From the IMG/VR virus record IMGVR_UViG_3300049135_000042, positions 1 to 41,745 of that record: a stretch of DNA of 41,745 nucleotides; one strand, 5' to 3'. Positions 9,715-28,322 of this stretch are shown here, piece after piece (position 1 is the stretch's first letter; each line of letters begins with the position of its first letter). The notes below the pieces were generated by a model. It saw only the letters and a list, made by a program, of their open reading frames with translations. It was not told where the DNA came from and made no database searches. The DNA comes from a virus (lineage: Duplodnaviria; Caudoviricetes). The translations under genes were made by a program, and so were the position numbers.

Positions 9715-11046
9715 TCACGATGGTGATAGGCCGGATTCTCCCGTGTCGACCCCCAGCCCGAGCGTGCCGGCAACCGTTGACAGCGCGGCGAGCGTCCGAG
9801 CCCGGTCGGTGTGCAGGTAGGCCTGTGTGCTCAGGATGCTGGCGTGCCCCATGATCGCAGTGATGGTGGAGTCGTCCACGCCCGCAGCCCGCAGCATCGT
9901 CGCCGCAGTGTGCCGACCCTCGTACTCGTACGGCAGGCGTCCGTGGATCTCCGGCCCACGACCCGGGTTCGGCTCGGTGATCGCGACCTGGGCAGCGTGG
10001 CAGAGCTCATACCAGACGGCGCGGTCCTCGTCGGAGGCCTGTGGGCTACCGTCCGGGCGCGGCCACACCAGGCCGTGTGGGGACTTCGGTGCCGCCTCGC
10101 GCCAGGTGGTCAGTGCCGAGGCCATCCACGGCACAAGCGGGATCACGCGCTTGCCTGACTTCGTCTTCGGCCGCACAAGGTGCGTGGCGCCGGCGAGCTG
10201 CCGCGCTTCGTACCCGCGGGGCACCCGGAAGCCCGAGGTGCGGTCACGAGCGACGCGGTAGGGCAGAGGCTGGAGCTGCCAGGAGACGTCGAGGTGACCG
10301 GCCTCGAGGTCGACGGCGTCCCACGTCAGGCCGAGGCATTCCCCAGGCCGCATGCCCTGGAGCAGAGCGGCCACCCAGCGGGACGCATCCGGGCGCTGGG
10401 AGGCCACCTGCAGGATGGCCAGCGCGTCCGGCAGCGGGATCGCGTCGCGGTCGTTCTCGCCGGCCCCCGGGCCTTCCACGAGCAGCACGCGCTGCGGGAC
10501 GGCGTATCCCTCCATGATGGCGTCGCGCAGCATCTTGAGCAGCACCGCGTGCGCGCGCTGCACCGACGACGGCTGGGCGCCCGCGACGTCCATGTAGCGG
10601 TGCAGAGCTCGCACGTCCGCCGGGGAGAGCTGGTCGAGCCGCCGGTGCCCGATCGACGGGATGATCGAGTTGCGGATCTGTGACCGGTCCGTGGCCCATG
10701 TCCGGGGGCGCATGGTGTCGACCCGGTTCTCCAGCCAACGCTCGGCCCATGCCTTCACGGTGGACTTCCCGCCGGCGGCTGCACCCTCGCCGTCCTGGAC
10801 CTTGAGCAGCGCCTGGCGCAGCTTCTGCTCGGCACCCTTCTTCGTGGTCGCGGTGACCTTGGGTCGCCGCCGGGTGCCGCGCTTGGTGAAGCCGGCGTCG
10901 TAGGTGCCGACCCACCGCCCGGGGCACTTGTGCTTGGGTCGGACCTTACGGGTCTTCCCGTCCTCGCCGACGGCGGCGACGGACGGGGGGCAGGTGGGTG
11001 TGCACTCCTGGAACACGGTGCCGGTTCCTTTGAGCCTCTGGGGCAT
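9715..11046 (-). CDS. int: tyrosine integrase
   Basis: GMRPGECLGL (R), PKTKSG (K), YEGRHT (HxxR variant), MGH, TQAYLH (Y). Start MPQRLKGTG; adjacent to attP. Confidence 0.95.
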   Translation of the reverse strand: MPQRLKGTGTVFQECTPTCPPSVAAVGEDGKTRKVRPKHKCPGRWVGTYDAGFTKRGTRRRPKVTATTKKGAEQKLRQALLKVQDGEGAAAGGKSTVKAWAERWLENRVDTMRPRTWATDRSQIRNSIIPSIGHRRLDQLSPADVRALHRYMDVAGAQPSSVQRAHAVLLKMLRDAIMEGYAVPQRVLLVEGPGAGENDRDAIPLPDALAILQVASQRPDASRWVAALLQGMRPGECLGLTWDAVDLEAGHLDVSWQLQPLPYRVARDRTSGFRVPRGYEARQLAGATHLVRPKTKSGKRVIPLVPWMASALTTWREAAPKSPHGLVWPRPDGSPQASDEDRAVWYELCHAAQVAITEPNPGRGPEIHGRLPYEYEGRHTAATMLRAAGVDDSTITAIMGHASILSTQAYLHTDRARTLAALSTVAGTLGLGVDTGESGLSPS

Positions 11047-11062
11047 CGTTCGGCCTCTCGTA

Positions 11063-11083
11063 GGGAGCCATCGGGGGAGCCAT
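11063..11083 (+). repeat. integrase arm-type sites, left pair (GGGAGCCAT x2)
   Basis: Direct repeats at 11063 and 11075, mirrored by a pair at 11289 and 11301 with the same 12-bp period. Confidence 0.6.
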
Positions 11084-11095
11084 TCAGAGCCTACG

Positions 11096-11109
11096 GGTGC
11101 ATATGCCAT
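11096..11109. promoter_or_regulatory. operator-like site over the putative int promoter
   Basis: GGTGCATATGCCAT just upstream of a minus-strand -10 TAGGCT (11088-11093). Confidence 0.5.
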
Positions 11110-11166
11110 AACCGCATCTTTGCAGGTCAGACCGCTTTTAGTGTGCCATAACTGACCCCTATCCTA

Positions 11167-11212
11167 TCACTCGTAATGAGAAGGTCGTCAGTTCGATTCT
11201 GACAGGCGGCTC
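11167..11212 (+). other. attP core = 3' half of tRNA-Thr(CGT)
   Basis: TCA-CTCGTAA-TGA anticodon arm, GTCAG-TTCGATT-CTGAC T-arm, AGGCGGC-TC acceptor strand. No 5' tRNA half upstream; phage genes on both sides. Confidence 0.9.
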
Positions 11213-11221
11213 AAGTGGATC

Positions 11222-11258
11222 GGCCCCGGAATCTCAACGGTTCCGGGGCCTTCCTCTT
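11222..11258 (+). terminator. terminator downstream of the att core
   Basis: GGCCCCGGAATC-TCAAC-GGTTCCGGGGCC followed by TTCCTCTT; would terminate the reconstituted host tRNA after integration. Confidence 0.75.
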
Positions 11259-11288
11259 GCCCGGCCATAGCTGCCTAAAACAGGCCAA

Positions 11289-11309
11289 GGGAGCCATTAG
11301 GGTAGCCAT
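11289..11309 (+). repeat. integrase arm-type sites, right pair (GGGAGCCAT, GGTAGCCAT)
   Basis: Same motif and spacing as the left pair. Confidence 0.6.
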
Positions 11310-11372
11310 TCGTCCTTCGCTACTCGGCCCGCGTCATTCCGGGAAGCCCCCACCTGTGGAAAGATCCCCCCC

Positions 11373-11684
11373 ATGGCCGCCGAGATGCCCGCCCCACCCC
11401 TGCCCCTGAACGTCACGGGCGGCGACGGTGACGGCGAACGCACGGGGTACTGGACCGTGACGGGCTCGCAGGACCCGCGCGAGGTGGAGGCAACCATCAC
11501 CCGGGCGACGTCGCCGGACGACGGTCACCTTTTCTTCGCGTGGGACCTGACCCAGCGGACCCACCCGAAGCACAACGGCGTGCGCTCGTACATGGACACG
11601 ATCAAGGAGGGCTTCGCGCCGACGTTCGAGCAAGCGCTGGCAGAGCTGACCGAGGCGTGGGTGCAGCTGCTCGGGACGACGTAG
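11373..11684 (+). CDS. hypothetical protein, att-proximal accessory gene
   Basis: 103-aa ORF with normal amino-acid composition and high GC3, opposite in strand to the late operon. Confidence 0.7.
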   Translation: MAAEMPAPPLPLNVTGGDGDGERTGYWTVTGSQDPREVEATITRATSPDDGHLFFAWDLTQRTHPKHNGVRSYMDTIKEGFAPTFEQALAELTEAWVQLLGTT

Positions 11685-11752
11685 TCCCACCCCGCTTACA
11701 TTCCGGCGGCAGATGCCAAGTTTCCGGCCGTTCGCTTGGATATGGGCATAGC

Positions 11753-11785
11753 AAAACCCCCTCCCACCCGAAGGTGAGAGGGGGT
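11753..11785 (-). terminator. intrinsic terminator
   Basis: Minus strand ACCCCCTCTCACC-TTCG-GGTGGGAGGGGGT-TTT: cUUCGg loop, one G-U pair, U tail. Confidence 0.85.
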
Positions 11786-11801
11786 GTGCTTCCACGCGAG
11801 G

Positions 11802-11877
11802 TGATGCGGGGCCCGGAGTTCAACCGGGGTCCATGCGGCTCACGAAGTCCGTCGCTCTAACCCTGAGCTACCCCGCG
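11802..11877 (-). ncRNA. degenerate tRNA / tRNA-like RNA
   Basis: CGCGGGG TA GCTC AGGGTTA GAGC G ACGGA CTTCGTGA GCCGC ATGGAC CCCGG TTGAACT CCGGG CCCCGCA TCA. Acceptor, D and T stems intact; anticodon arm and T-loop aberrant. Confidence 0.75.
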
Positions 11878-11924
11878 CCTCGCGCTTCTGGTCGGCATCA
11901 CGGCCCGACCCGTACCGTGTGCAT

Positions 11925-11946
11925 AGTGTAGCGAGAGGGTCTGACA
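11925..11946 (-). promoter_or_regulatory. PafBC-type promoter for the tRNA-like RNA
   Basis: Minus strand TGTCAG-ACCCTCTCGC-TACACT = TGTCRG-N10-TANNNT. Confidence 0.6.
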
Positions 11947-11947
11947 C

Positions 11948-12331
11948 TCAGGGCTGGCGGTTGGGCACGATCCCCACGGACAGCGCACCGAGAGCGGCGA
12001 TCAGCACCAGGAGCCAGGACGACGCCGGGATCGAGCCGTTCACGATGAGCGGGACGGCCGCCTGCAGCGCGGTGCCGACGACGGCGACGATCGCCTTGGC
12101 GTACCGGCCGACGCCGGACGGCAGGTTCGGCACCAGGTAGACGGCCAGCGCGTTGACGAGCGCCAGGCCGATGCCGAACCGCTCGTCCAGCACCACGACG
12201 CCGTCGGTCAGCGCCGCAGCGAGCACGGTGAGGGCCGCCGTCAGGATGGCGACGATGGCCTTCGAGTACTTGCTGGGGAGCTCGACGGGGTCGAAGGTCA
12301 GGATCTCGGAGTTGTCGGGGAGGTGGCTCAT
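11948..12331 (-). CDS. holin
   Basis: Four hydrophobic helices in two internal repeats (Y.KAIVA...VPN); directly after the endolysin. Confidence 0.8.
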   Translation of the reverse strand: MSHLPDNSEILTFDPVELPSKYSKAIVAILTAALTVLAAALTDGVVVLDERFGIGLALVNALAVYLVPNLPSGVGRYAKAIVAVVGTALQAAVPLIVNGSIPASSWLLVLIAALGALSVGIVPNRQP

Positions 12332-12334
12332 CGG

Positions 12335-13204
12335 TCAGTTCTCCTTGCGGGTCAGGGTGATCTCGCCCTCCAGCGGAAGGACGACCTCCTCCAGGGCGGC
12401 GTCGATCTTGTCGCCGAGGAGCTTGAGCAGGGTGTCCGGATCGATGCCCTTGGACTCGGCCAGGGTGCGGATGATCGCGGTCTGCGCCGCGTCACGCTTC
12501 TCCGCCTTGGCGAACCCGGCGCGGTTCTCGATCAGGAGGCGACGCAGCGCGGCCGTGAGCGAGAGCCGGTCCTGCTCCTTCGGCTTGCCGGCCGGGCCGT
12601 CGATGACCCGGCCGTCGACGATGTCGAGGATCTTCTTGATGTTGTTCTCTGCGGCGGCGCTCATGTCGTCGTCCTCCTGGGTGGGCTTGGCGTTCTTCTG
12701 GGTGTCACGCTCGGGCTTGTAGACGCGGTGCCAGGGCTCGCCGATGGATCTGCCCTCGTCGTCGGTCCAGCCGTGCTTCTCGAGGATCGGAGTGGCGAGC
12801 CTGCTCCGGGCGTTGCCTGTGGTGCGGTAGGCGCCGAAGTCGTCGACGTCGACCGCGACCCCCCATCCGTGGTTCGAGTTGCCAGGGATGGCCGCCGGTG
12901 CTCCGGACGTCCGCACGTAGCGCGCGCCCTTGTACCAACGGACGTCGCCGAATGGGCCATTGCCGCTCGCCTGACGCGAGTACCGCTCGAAGAAGAACCG
13001 CTCCTGCTCGGCGAGGCTCCGGTTCCAGCCACGGACCGTGAGCACGATCCCGGTCTTCGCCTTGACCTCGGCTCGCGCGCGGTTCCAGGACTCGGCTGCG
13101 TCGCGACGGAGTTCCGCCTTGCCGTAGTTCTCGCCGTCGAGCGGGGCGAGGAGCGAGGCTGGCACGTTCCCGTTCGTGTAGGTCTTGCCGGCGAAGGTGG
13201 CCAT
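12335..13204 (-). CDS. endolysin, M15/VanY-like Zn peptidase
   Basis: RSLAEQ..FF.RY, AAIPGNSNHGWGVAVDV (SxHxxGxAxD), EPWH. Confidence 0.9.
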   Translation of the reverse strand: MATFAGKTYTNGNVPASLLAPLDGENYGKAELRRDAAESWNRARAEVKAKTGIVLTVRGWNRSLAEQERFFFERYSRQASGNGPFGDVRWYKGARYVRTSGAPAAIPGNSNHGWGVAVDVDDFGAYRTTGNARSRLATPILEKHGWTDDEGRSIGEPWHRVYKPERDTQKNAKPTQEDDDMSAAAENNIKKILDIVDGRVIDGPAGKPKEQDRLSLTAALRRLLIENRAGFAKAEKRDAAQTAIIRTLAESKGIDPDTLLKLLGDKIDAALEEVVLPLEGEITLTRKEN

Positions 13205-13211
13205 GTCGCTC

Positions 13212-13925
13212 CTAAGGGGTCGGGGTGGGGCTCGGCGCTGGGGGCTCGATGACGGGCGGCGTGGGCGCCCGGCAGGACAGGGTCACGGCGCCGTCGGCCG
13301 CGATGGTGAAGCCCACGACGGTCTCGCCGTCGGGGCAGGCGTAGGTCCCGGGCTTCGCGGCGCCCTGGGGGCCACGGTCGCCGGTATCGCCCTTCGCGCC
13401 GGTATCGCCCTTCGGCCCTTGGATGCCCTGGATGCCCTGAGGACCGGTGAGGCCGATAGGCCCCTGCTCTCCGGTGGCGCCAGCCGTGCCAGTGAGGCCG
13501 ATGTCGCCAGGCTCGCCCGGCGCACCTCGCGGGCCGATTGGTCCACGCGGTCCGGTCTCTCCAGGCGGCCCGGTGCGCCCCTGGGGGCCAGTAGCGCCAG
13601 TGAAGCCACGCTCACCCTGTGGCCCCGGGATGCCCTGGGCGCCAGCCGGGCCCGCCACGGGCGTGTTCGCCACGACCTCAGCGGCCTGCTTGCACAGGTC
13701 GCGGCCGTCGAGGTCGAGAGAGCCCTGGGACTCACACGCCTGCTGCACCTGCTCAGCCAGGGACGCGGCAGAGGTCTCCGCGGTCTCGGCGCGAGTCTGC
13801 GTCTCGTGCCACAGCACCAGGAATAGCGCCAAGGCCACCATGCCGGCCGCGACCAGGGCGATGTTCTGCTTGAACCGACGGCGCGGTTCGCGGGCGACCT
13901 GCTCGGCCCGTTCCACTTCGGTCAC
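13212..13925 (-). CDS. membrane-anchored collagen-like protein
   Basis: N-terminal TM ([18 protein letters not shown]), Cys-pair helical segment, about 33 G-X-Y triplets, then a Cys-pair and Pro-rich tail. GTG start overlaps the upstream stop. Confidence 0.8.
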
Positions 13926-15152: not shown

Positions 15153-16532
15153 TCAGGCCACCGGGACGATGAACTGGCCGCCGCCGTGGGTGGCGCTGGA
15201 CGCGGTCGAGTGGGTGACGGTCGCTGTCGGGATCGGCGTTGCAGCGAGGTCCTTGATCATCACGGTCAGCGTCCGTGGCGCGACACCGCCAGCCGAACCT
15301 GTCGCGAACCCGAGCACGGTGAAACCGTCCGAGGCGGCAGGGTCGGACGCCGCGTCGTGCATGACGAACAGGACCACCTTGTGGAACGGGACGGTGGCCG
15401 TCGCGAAGCTCTGGATCGAGCAGCCCGTCGTCGTGTTCGAGTTGATCGTCGCCGCCGACCGGTTGGATCCTGAGGTGTATGCCGGCCACGCGGACGCGAC
15501 CAGCGATCCGGGGACCACGAAGCAGACGCCCATGCGGCGGGCGGTCTGGCCGTAGGACGCGGTGACCGTCGACCCCAGCGCGGACAATGCCGTCGAGTCC
15601 GTGACGCGGTAGACGTAGGCACCCGTGTCCCGCGTGTGGTTCGCGGAGTAGTCGATGATCTCCACCCACCCGGAGTCGCTGACCGAGATGTCGCCACCTG
15701 TCGCGGCAGGGTCGAAGCCGGGGATGAAGATCACCGCGTCGCCGATCGCCACCCCAGCAGGGACGGGGCAGGAGACCGTGGTGCCCTCGGAGTCGTGAGA
15801 GACGGTCTCCACCGTCGGCGGCTCCGGGACCACGCCCGACGGGATGTAGCCGAGCAGCCCGGGAGACGTACCCAGCGGAGGCTCGGTGCCCGCGGGGATC
15901 AGGAGGATGCCCGAACCACCACCACCGCCGGACTCCAGCGCGGCCAGGCGGGACTCCAGGTTGGTGACGGTCTCGATGCCCTGGGTGCCCGTGTGGCTCC
16001 CGCGGTCGCGGTCGGCCGTCGAGGCCGCGGCAGTCGCGTTCGCGACGAGCGTCCCGGTCTCTTCCTTCGTGTAGTGCCGCACCATACTTCGCGCCGCGGT
16101 GTCGTACTGCGTGTGCGGGTCACCGGTGGTCAGGTTGGACAGCAGGCTGTGGTCGGTGACGCCGCCGCCGCCGGGGTTCGCGAGGATGTAGGCCTGGAGC
16201 TCGGAGAGAGCGGCGTCGGCCGCTGCGTGGGCGGCGGCCGCGGACTGCCGCGACGCCTCCTCGAACCAGATCGGTCCGCGCAGACCTGACCCGGCGTCGT
16301 ACCAGTCCACGAGGACGGTCTCGGGATTCTCAGTGTCGATGTAGACCGTAGGCGTCGTGGCCGCCTGCGTCACCGTTACCAGAGACGACGGGATCGGGTC
16401 CCCGGCCGCGTCGAAGATCGGGTACGGGGTCGTGGTGTTGCGCGTGACTACCTGGACCTGTTGGCCCTTGAGTGCGGTGTTGGGCTCCAGGGTCGTCGCG
16501 TCGAGCACCCACGCCGGGTAGATCGGGTACAT
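15153..16532 (-). CDS. tail fibre / receptor-binding protein
   Basis: Position after the minor tail genes; HSLLSNL..GDPHTQY and HTGTQ fibre-type motifs, Gly linkers, beta-rich C-terminus. Confidence 0.7.
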   Translation of the reverse strand: MYPIYPAWVLDATTLEPNTALKGQQVQVVTRNTTTPYPIFDAAGDPIPSSLVTVTQAATTPTVYIDTENPETVLVDWYDAGSGLRGPIWFEEASRQSAAAAHAAADAALSELQAYILANPGGGGVTDHSLLSNLTTGDPHTQYDTAARSMVRHYTKEETGTLVANATAAASTADRDRGSHTGTQGIETVTNLESRLAALESGGGGGSGILLIPAGTEPPLGTSPGLLGYIPSGVVPEPPTVETVSHDSEGTTVSCPVPAGVAIGDAVIFIPGFDPAATGGDISVSDSGWVEIIDYSANHTRDTGAYVYRVTDSTALSALGSTVTASYGQTARRMGVCFVVPGSLVASAWPAYTSGSNRSAATINSNTTTGCSIQSFATATVPFHKVVLFVMHDAASDPAASDGFTVLGFATGSAGGVAPRTLTVMIKDLAATPIPTATVTHSTASSATHGGGQFIVPVA

Positions 16533-28070: not shown

Positions 28071-28092
28071 TGTCGGTGGTTCGCCGTAAGTT
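28071..28092 (+). promoter_or_regulatory. PafBC-type promoter for the antisense small gene
   Basis: TGTCGG-TGGTTCGCCG-TAAGTT = TGTCGG-N10-TANNNT. Confidence 0.65.
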
Positions 28093-28145: not shown

Positions 28146-28322
28146 ATGTCGACCAACCAGGAAGCGCAGACAAAGCTGGAGACGGCGATCGGCGTCTTGG
28201 CTGATCGGGCTGCGGAGCACGCCGAGGCCGGAGCACCGACCGGAGCTCGGGACCTCGCAGAGGGGGCGAAGGAACTGGCCGAAGCGCACGCATGGCTCCG
28301 GTCGTCTGCACAGCCGCATTGA
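28146..28322 (+). CDS. 58-aa helical protein, antisense moron (missing from the ORF track)
   Basis: MSTNQEAQTKLETAIGVLADRAAEHAEAGAPTGARDLAEGAKELAEAHAWLRSSAQPH; GGGGAGGGG RBS; fills the gap up to the minor capsid stop. Confidence 0.75.
   Translation: MSTNQEAQTKLETAIGVLADRAAEHAEAGAPTGARDLAEGAKELAEAHAWLRSSAQPH

Follow-up and report, generated by a model that had tools for sequence, protein, structure and literature searches.

Phage T4, a lytic phage, encodes two stable tRNA-like RNAs of unknown function, species 1 and 2, in its tRNA cluster, and papers on PARIS and on retrons reportedly describe phage tRNAs that counter tRNA-targeting defence. The counter-defence tRNAs treated in the available parts of PMC10264068 and PMC12445682 are phage-encoded and tRNA-derived, have an altered anticodon arm, can be charged and replace the host tRNA that has been cut. 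Inactive allo-tRNAs and irregular tRNAs next to toxin-antitoxin loci are odd cloverleaves from soil that apparently stand outside translation and are linked to conflict; as far as the accessible text of PMC5389517 describes them, they have acceptor branches of 12 bp (8/4 or 9/3) and long variable arms. The YrlA RNAs have a permuted order of T arm, acceptor and D arm (YrlA/Yrn1; PMC4201824, accessible in part; Rfam RF02553). In tRNA-dependent lysogeny, a single tRNA-like gene lies near attP of a temperate actinophage, and the portion available of PMC10865867 describes an att core of about 10 bp together with a phage tRNA of the disrupted isotype.

Here we describe a tRNA-like RNA gene from a virus record of 41,745 nt (IMGVR_UViG_3300049135_000042), which is called the window throughout. 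Judged from its sequence, the RNA appears most similar to non-decoding tRNA mimics and seems to fall outside the initiator tRNAs, decoding tRNAs, YrlA/Y RNAs, allo-tRNAs and tRNA-dependent lysogeny. It is likened to T4 species 1 and 2 by description only. With the counter-defence tRNAs it shares the phage origin, the derivation from a tRNA, the altered anticodon arm and a proposed role in counter-defence, but its acceptor is extended, its promoter motif is of the DNA-damage type, and a usable anticodon is missing. In contrast to YrlA/Yrn1, it has neither a Ro60 neighbour nor the Ro60 motif, it lacks an Rfam match to that family, and its arms are not permuted as those of YrlA are. Compared with the allo-tRNAs, the core is of the 7/5 type (6(+1)/5, with a 1:72 mismatch), the variable region has 6 nt, and a helix of 8-9 bp follows beyond an internal loop. 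It resembles tRNA-dependent lysogeny in being a single tRNA-like gene near attP of a temperate actinophage; however, the core here comprises 46 nt of a tRNA-Thr, the RNA is Met-like, attP can rebuild the target tRNA-Thr, and the RNA also travels with another integrase.

A separate observation concerns Streptomyces phage Zeigle (MT684596, about 16082-16165; L245:1453-1535). An unannotated gap between its tRNA-Pro and tRNA-Gly genes reads as a circularly permuted tRNA-like RNA, with a T arm, a loop-closed acceptor and a D arm on the closing stem. It is YrlA-like in order and has no Rfam match.

A tRNA-like unit between the lysis genes and attP

The window is the 41.7-kb record of a temperate siphophage with 70% G+C, and structural, lysis, integrase, repressor and replication genes are present. 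The tRNA-like unit lies on the minus strand between the holin gene and attP of this actinobacterial phage from soil. The features of the region are:

11948..12331, minus strand: gene for a holin-like membrane protein, the last gene of the late operon, 3′ of the gene for a VanY-type endolysin
11925..11946, minus strand: PafBC-type promoter motif TGTCAG-N10-TACACT, which begins 2 nt downstream of the stop codon of the holin gene and bounds the swappable cassette on its upstream side
11890..11910, minus strand: leader hairpin, in window-type alleles only; a 32-nt insertion relative to the diverged copy L001
11878..11885, minus strand: 5′ strand of the extension helix, 8 bp with pair probabilities of 0.65-0.99 (9 bp in L001)
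11804..11877, minus strand: tRNA-like cloverleaf with a 1:72 mismatch, 6-bp acceptor, 4-bp D stem, 6-nt variable region, 5-bp T stem and U73
11835..11852, minus strand: arm at the anticodon position, 3/5 pairs and an 8-nt loop; the hypervariable part of the family
11794..11801, minus strand: 3′ strand of the extension helix, which leads straight into A-CCA in L001 but not in the window
11786..11793, minus strand: trailer word GGAAGCAC, 8 nt, kept in all three variants
11752..11785, minus strand: intrinsic terminator of 13 pairs (hairpin 11785-11756) with a UUCG loop and a T-rich tail; downstream boundary of the cassette
11167..11212, plus strand: attP core, all 46 nt of which match the 3′ end of an actinobacterial tRNA-Thr(CGT)
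11109-9715: gene for a tyrosine integrase, next after the attP core

The first of these genes was assigned as a holin gene from its position and hydrophobicity. The original prediction was a unit of promoter, cloverleaf and UUCG terminator, and all three were found at the predicted places of the minus strand. The promoter motif consists of TGTCAG at 11946-11941, a spacer of 10 nt and TACACT at 11930-11925, and its presence suggests that the RNA is transcribed separately from its own promoter. No terminator was found between the holin stop codon and the tRNA-like RNA, and therefore read-through from the lysis operon is also expected; the terminator at 11752..11785 is likely to be the end of the lysis transcript.

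The details of the cloverleaf were likewise as predicted: C1.A72, a perfect D stem (GCTC/GAGC, 4/4 pairs) and T stem (5/5), the T-loop TTGAACT and no encoded CCA. The anticodon arm is distorted, with three good pairs out of five and an 8-nt loop closed by an A.G mismatch, and the flanks at 11885-11878 and 11801-11794 extend the acceptor by the proposed 8 bp.

The 46 nt of attP are the 3′ part of tRNA-Thr(CGT) in many actinobacteria, including Promicromonospora iranensis. A prophage in G284, a genome of the P. iranensis family, shares a lysis-region gene and both positions of the promoter motif with the window, and its lysin is 47% identical to that of the window. From the attP match and the similarity to this prophage we infer that the host is likely to be Promicromonospora-like.

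Two further elements were noted in the neighbourhood. An ORF of 103 aa (11373-11684, plus strand), from a family without a name, lies between attP and the cassette and faces the terminator; it has five homologues, none of them named, and relatives occur at the same site in L202 and L203. A tRNA-Glu called by ARAGORN at 13287-13365 was treated as false: a collagen-like gene occupies the opposite strand, and Rfam did not support the call.

Resemblance to elongator tRNA-Met

The expectation that tRNA-finding programs would return a pseudo or undetermined call was borne out. ARAGORN called the window cloverleaf tRNA-???, and the Rfam tRNA model scored it at 37.1 bits, compared to 50.8-77.1 bits for the 51 tRNAs of a relative of the likely host. 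Folding of the 171-nt unit gave a z value of -2.78, and an alternative 9-bp pairing of the acceptor had a probability of 0 upon folding. Helices of at least 8 bp between leader and trailer were found at none of the 51 host tRNA genes (the longest had 7 bp), whereas two phage copies have 8 and 9 bp. The absence of CCA alone is of little information, because only 15 of the 51 host tRNA calls have an encoded CCA end.

Bacterial initiator tRNA-fMet is characterized by a 1:72 mismatch, a D stem with A11-U24 (GAGC/GCUC), the CAU anticodon, three G-C pairs in the anticodon stem and A73. The acceptor had been called initiator-type, and this assignment was not upheld. The D stem GCTC/GAGC is of the elongator Met type and not the A11-U24 type of initiators, CAU and the three G-C pairs are absent, U73 replaces A73, and the acceptor pairs 2-7 occur in both kinds of Met tRNA, initiator and elongator, in the host family. 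Position 1:72 is C1.A72 in the window, G1.G72 in L001 and C1.U72 in the initiator of the host relative. Among the 51 host tRNAs, elongator tRNA-Met was the best global match of the window copy, although by a small margin (60.5 vs. 58.5 for the initiator). For L001 the elongator match was 62, and its first 15 nt are identical to that tRNA. Elongator tRNA-Met is thus nearest to both full copies, with the initiator a close second for the window copy only, and the cloverleaf appears to be derived from, or to converge on, elongator tRNA-Met.

Homologues and the variable anticodon arm

A cassette of 207 bp that is 97.6% identical to the window and bounded by the holin stop and the terminator was found in record G005 (L008/L204). 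The identity stops at 11744; other segments common to the two records are 69-90% identical, and holin, lysin and integrase differ. Record G004 (L001/L208) carries the diverged copy L001, which was missed by ARAGORN and Rfam with default settings. Three soil contigs contain near-identical copies, which show 1 difference in 209 nt (in a contig with different flanking sequence at either end), 3 in 169 nt and 1 in 135 nt. Of six sequencing runs compared with the window, out of 24 listed, X3 and the sole RNA run (X24) do not cover the unit, a result that bears on its expression in neither direction. A third variant is known in part from one soil contig with a depth of 3.35. The set thus comprises three variants, two of them in full.

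The comparison of the window with L001 revealed no changes in the 12 acceptor nucleotides of pairs 2-7, the 8 of the D stem, the 6 of the variable region and the 10 of the T stem, and U73 and a 1:72 mismatch occur in both. Two of 7 letters differ in the D-loop and 4 of 7 in the T-loop. In the anticodon stem, 5 of 10 nucleotides are changed, and the loops have 8 and 15 nt. By-eye pairing of the L001 arm gave 5/5 pairs around the 15-nt loop, with G30-C40 replaced by A30-U40. In the third variant, all eight listed changes fall inside the anticodon arm, from which an arm with 5/5 pairs (G29-C41 replaced by U29-A41) and a 7-nt loop without U33 follows; six further differences near the contig ends were not itemised. 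The extension helix of the window and L001 differs by two one-sided changes that preserve pairing, and no pair with a two-sided change was present in the alignment, which has three rows only.

None of the three variants has the combination of a 5-bp anticodon stem, a 7-nt loop and U33 that a decoding tRNA has. The arm seems to have been rebuilt each time, the stem being kept via compensatory changes and the loop never being canonical. Together with the fixed acceptor, D and T stems, this argues that the RNA is neither a decoding tRNA nor a product of scattered decay. The original prediction of a tRNA mimic instead of random decay is therefore in agreement with the comparison, as relatives carry no normal tRNA at the site and the changes are not scattered over the arms. 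Its further claim of a preserved elbow applies to L001, which has a canonical T-loop and the complete set of G18/G19 with U54-U55-C56 and A58. The window allele retains the elbow in part: C56 is changed to G, which removes the G19-C56 pair, and host tRNA-Met has 2 nt more in its D loop.

The RNA family appears to be rare in the collections searched, because no copy was found in the cultured phages, plasmids, metagenome scan and host genomes. An exact D-arm pattern gave no hits in viral contigs, and a strict pattern gave none in GTDB contigs. A pattern of D arm and variable region returned seven loci, namely the two known copies, three ordinary tRNA clusters and two chance matches. The combination of promoter and D arm returned 37 loci, none of them of the family, in an incomplete scan that also missed the matching L001, and the pattern scan of metagenomes returned 14 loci, again none of the family. 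BLAST against cultured phages and plasmids yielded only short tRNA or chance pieces. In 337 genomes of the family of P. iranensis (G001), seven weak matches were found, and all were due to chance when inspected; L010 was likewise a chance match and not a homologue. A covariance model (R2) matched in 126 of 151 genomes with at most 46.8 bits, compared to 107-126 bits for the training copies, and the best 15 matches, which were inspected, were ordinary tRNAs. At one of the 37 loci, in a high-GC phage (L051:601-720), a PafBC-type motif immediately precedes a normal tRNA-Arg(ACG), which may be chance.

Lengthened acceptor and 3′ end

The extension helix of L001 has 9 bp, begins at the likely start of transcription, 7 nt downstream of the -10 box, and leads into A-CCA. 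The predicted RNA of 105 nt would look like a tRNA whose acceptor exceeds the normal length by about one turn of the helix. In the third variant, CCA comes immediately after position 72. Energy minimisation supports the acceptor, T and extension helices of L001 but does not favour its D and anticodon arms: the cloverleaf has -48.2 kcal/mol compared to -57.4 kcal/mol for the minimum free energy structure, and the pair probability of the D stem is 0.01. These two arms are based on the similarity to tRNA.

The window allele is the allele seen most often. It looks derived, because the A-CCA tail is gone (a gap of 8 nt relative to L001), G56 is present and the leader contains the 32-nt insertion. 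The missing tail, G56 and two mismatches in the anticodon stem indicate that it may also be a weakened form.

The PafBC-type motif and a swappable slot

The promoter was predicted to be of the PafBC type, and the motif indeed fits the consensus tGTCgg(N10)tA(N3)T, as given in the accessible part of PMC8635444, including the strict GTC and the lack of a -35 box. No sigma-70-type promoters were found in 11000-12500. The motif is enriched in the window, with two occurrences compared to 0.12 expected and at least two in 0 of 100 shuffles. The second occurrence (28071-28092, plus strand) precedes an ORF of 58 aa (28146-28322) that is antisense in the head operon, has no NCBIfam match and is absent from five related records; a near-identical motif in the same orientation is present in the G284 prophage (C7:21886).

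Nine related records cover the site behind the last gene of the lysis region, and eight of them have the motif there: the window, L202, L203 (twice), L204, L205, L206, L208 and L212. It is absent from L247. L207 ends before the site and is outside this count, and the integrase or holin relatives L249, L002 and L003 have no motif in their records. When five related records were scanned together, the motif occurred five times, always at this slot, and control matches were 0. The tRNA mimic is carried by three of the nine records and is lacking in the other six. Instead, L203 has a different tRNA-like RNA, L202, L203 and L212 have short RNAs, and L206 and record 11 of X8 have nothing. The promoter therefore seems to mark a swappable slot that holds other small RNAs or nothing, and the RNA is dispensable, since some relatives have an empty slot or no slot at all.

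The cargo of the slot is diverse. The tRNA-like RNA at L203:8684-8850 (IMGVR_UViG_3300049139_000039) stands behind the same promoter motif, is unrelated and consists of an acceptor and T arm, a long variable arm and a second T-loop-like hairpin at the anticodon position, with no proper D arm. It has a weak match to tRNA-Sec (E 0.99) and no homologues in cultured phages or the 337 host-family genomes. A further promoter with a short RNA and a terminator lies just upstream (8487). L202:8852-9000 encodes an RNA of about 85 nt with a terminator, which has a similar continuation in the soil run X2, and L212:6439-6530 an RNA of about 30 nt with a terminator; neither belongs to an Rfam family. In L205:9835-9940, the slot promoter runs antisense into a predicted hydrophobic ORF of 27 codons, by eye similar to a type I toxin-antitoxin arrangement.

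In bacteria of the likely host group, PafBC-type motifs numbered 85 compared to 4 controls in P. iranensis and 80 compared to 5 in G284. The 30 host ORFs behind the motif include radA, gyrA, gyrB, ogt, nth and genes for a DEDD exonuclease and a CBASS phospholipase; 14 of the 30 have no NCBIfam match, and several are not repair genes. WYL regulators gave 8 and 11 matches in the host group, among which PafB and PafC were not told apart. The CBASS phospholipase gene of P. iranensis (L232, G001:C1:603096; NF041079, above cut-off) lies 16 nt behind the motif, which suggests a damage-induced host defence.

Possible functions of the RNA

The reading that we favour, tentatively and at rather less than an even chance, is that the RNA is a decoy, timed by DNA damage, whose target is a host protein that recognises tRNA from the acceptor/T/D side, and by CCA where present. 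From the observed anatomy, conservation pattern, slot and tie of the motif to host repair genes we infer the following functional steps. PafBC, the host sensor of single-stranded DNA and DNA damage, would activate the promoter at induction and during lytic replication, and late read-through from the lysis operon would supply more RNA. The RNA would adopt the fold as drawn, in which the extra helix holds the 5′ and 3′ ends together. It would neither be charged with methionine nor decode, because the loop with CAU and U33 is absent, and the long form would stay outside translation, because about one helical turn too many separates its CCA end from the elbow. By titration of a defence protein or toxin that attacks tRNA by reading the acceptor or CCA, e.g., toxSAS, tRNA acetyl- or nucleotidyl-transferases or a Cas12a3-like protein, it would aid the lytic cycle.

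The retained acceptor, T and D parts and closed ends, with CCA in two variants, speak for a partner that recognises tRNA by its upper half, and the timing by DNA damage together with late read-through fits a helper of the lytic phase. Variable cargo in one frame of promoter and terminator would be the pattern of accessory conflict genes. Defence proteins that read the acceptor or CCA do exist (PMC11559606 and PMC12851939, in the parts available). The published phage tRNAs that overcome tRNA-targeting defences are, according to the available text of PMC10264068 and PMC12445682, replacements of the cut tRNA and not decoys, which counts against the decoy reading. A wider version is possible but unlikely: the slot would hold swappable small-RNA weapons wired to PafBC, timed by the same signal that switches host defences on, and the acceptor lengthened by one turn would make the RNA a decoy against tRNA-targeting immunity while translation is avoided.

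Several other explanations were considered. An improbable one is that the tRNA fold is a processing or stability element at the 3′ end of the lysis transcript, either a site for cutting by RNase P and 3′ trimming or a protective cap. RNase P reads just those parts of a tRNA that are conserved here, and the absence of a terminator behind the holin gene is in accordance with this view. However, the RNA has a promoter motif of its own, it is missing from six of the nine records, a strong terminator hairpin already caps the transcript, and L001 encodes A-CCA at a helix end that is flush with the 5′ end.

Equally improbable is decay with hitch-hiking, in which a phage tRNA-Met or an L001-like mimic is degenerating and the window allele is a relic in a frame of promoter and terminator. 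The window allele has indeed lost A-CCA, C56 and two stem pairs compared to L001, and the slots of L206 and record 11 of X8 are empty. Against decay, the changes are confined to the loops and the anticodon arm and are accompanied by compensation, no relative has a normal tRNA at the site, and the allele is near-identical in G005 and three soil contigs, whereas one of these runs shows 33 differences over 286 nt of neighbouring sequence.

The original prediction proposed a decoy for tRNA-targeting toxins or anticodon nucleases. The decoy has been kept as the best reading, but the anticodon nuclease as its target is weakly supported, with unrelated loops of 8, 15 and 7 nt. In that version the RNA would bait VapC, PrrC/RloC, PARIS or OLD, and the changing loops would reflect an arms race against different nucleases. 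A stem is present at the anticodon position of all three variants, and damage-activated tRNases exist, RloC reportedly being one. The body copies Met tRNAs, which are known VapC targets (PMC10264068, accessible in part). Yet these enzymes read the sequence of the anticodon loop or stem, according to the available parts of PMC12851939 and PMC12445682, and here that sequence is unrelated between the variants and the loops are unlike any host loop. The anticodon loop alone is free to vary, which argues against both decoding and anticodon nucleases and fits a partner at the acceptor/T/D side better. We regard the anticodon-nuclease decoy as less likely than the acceptor/T-side decoy and, taken by itself, as quite improbable.

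The same low standing is given to a prophage-borne defence or growth brake, in which the RNA would be made in response to single-stranded DNA of an invading phage and jam RNase P, the CCA enzyme or EF-Tu. The slot, being next to attP, is a typical place for cargo, the motif also precedes the host CBASS gene, and some inactive allo-tRNAs are toxic in E. coli (PMC5389517, accessible in part). However, the phage's own induction and late transcription would trigger the RNA as well, and this should harm the burst.

That the RNA mimics a Y RNA with the arm order of Deinococcus Yrn1 and hijacks host Ro60 is very unlikely. The paired ends and a bulge adjoin a tRNA-like domain, Yrn1 has the D arm, an odd anticodon arm and the T arm in the same order (PMC4201824, in the part available), and 13 of 30 genomes from the likely host genus encode Ro60. 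Nevertheless, the motif GNCGAAN0-1G is absent, no match to YrlA (RF02553) was found at E <= 1, none of the three phage records, which may be incomplete, has a TROVE gene, the Y RNAs of the host genus are of the permuted YrlA type, and the trailer resembles host Y RNAs no more than expected by chance (146-224 of 500 shuffles). The Ro60 genes of that genus (L305-L308) are preceded by one to three YrlA-like RNAs below the Rfam cut-off. Least probable of all is a functional suppressor or +1 frameshift tRNA: the 8-nt loop holds CGT/TCG, which ARAGORN reads as tcgt, and the third variant has a 7-nt loop, but the L001 loop has 15 nt, no anticodon is common to the variants, the third variant lacks U33, and the 1:72 mismatch is combined with the lack of a matching set of synthetase identity elements.

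In the literature searched, mostly without subscription papers and supplements, neither this RNA nor any phage tRNA mimic driven by PafBC was described, no paper linked PafBC and prophages by title or abstract, and the damage-type promoter, the swappable slot and the lengthened CCA-bearing acceptor were not encountered. The supplements of PMC5389517 and PMC4201824, which contain many RNAs, could bear on the novelty. Whether RNA decoys against tRNA-targeting immunity exist could be tested directly with this conserved, non-decoding mimic, its natural arm variants and, as controls, the empty slots. The slot suggests that actinophages borrow the host PafBC response for the timing of small RNAs.
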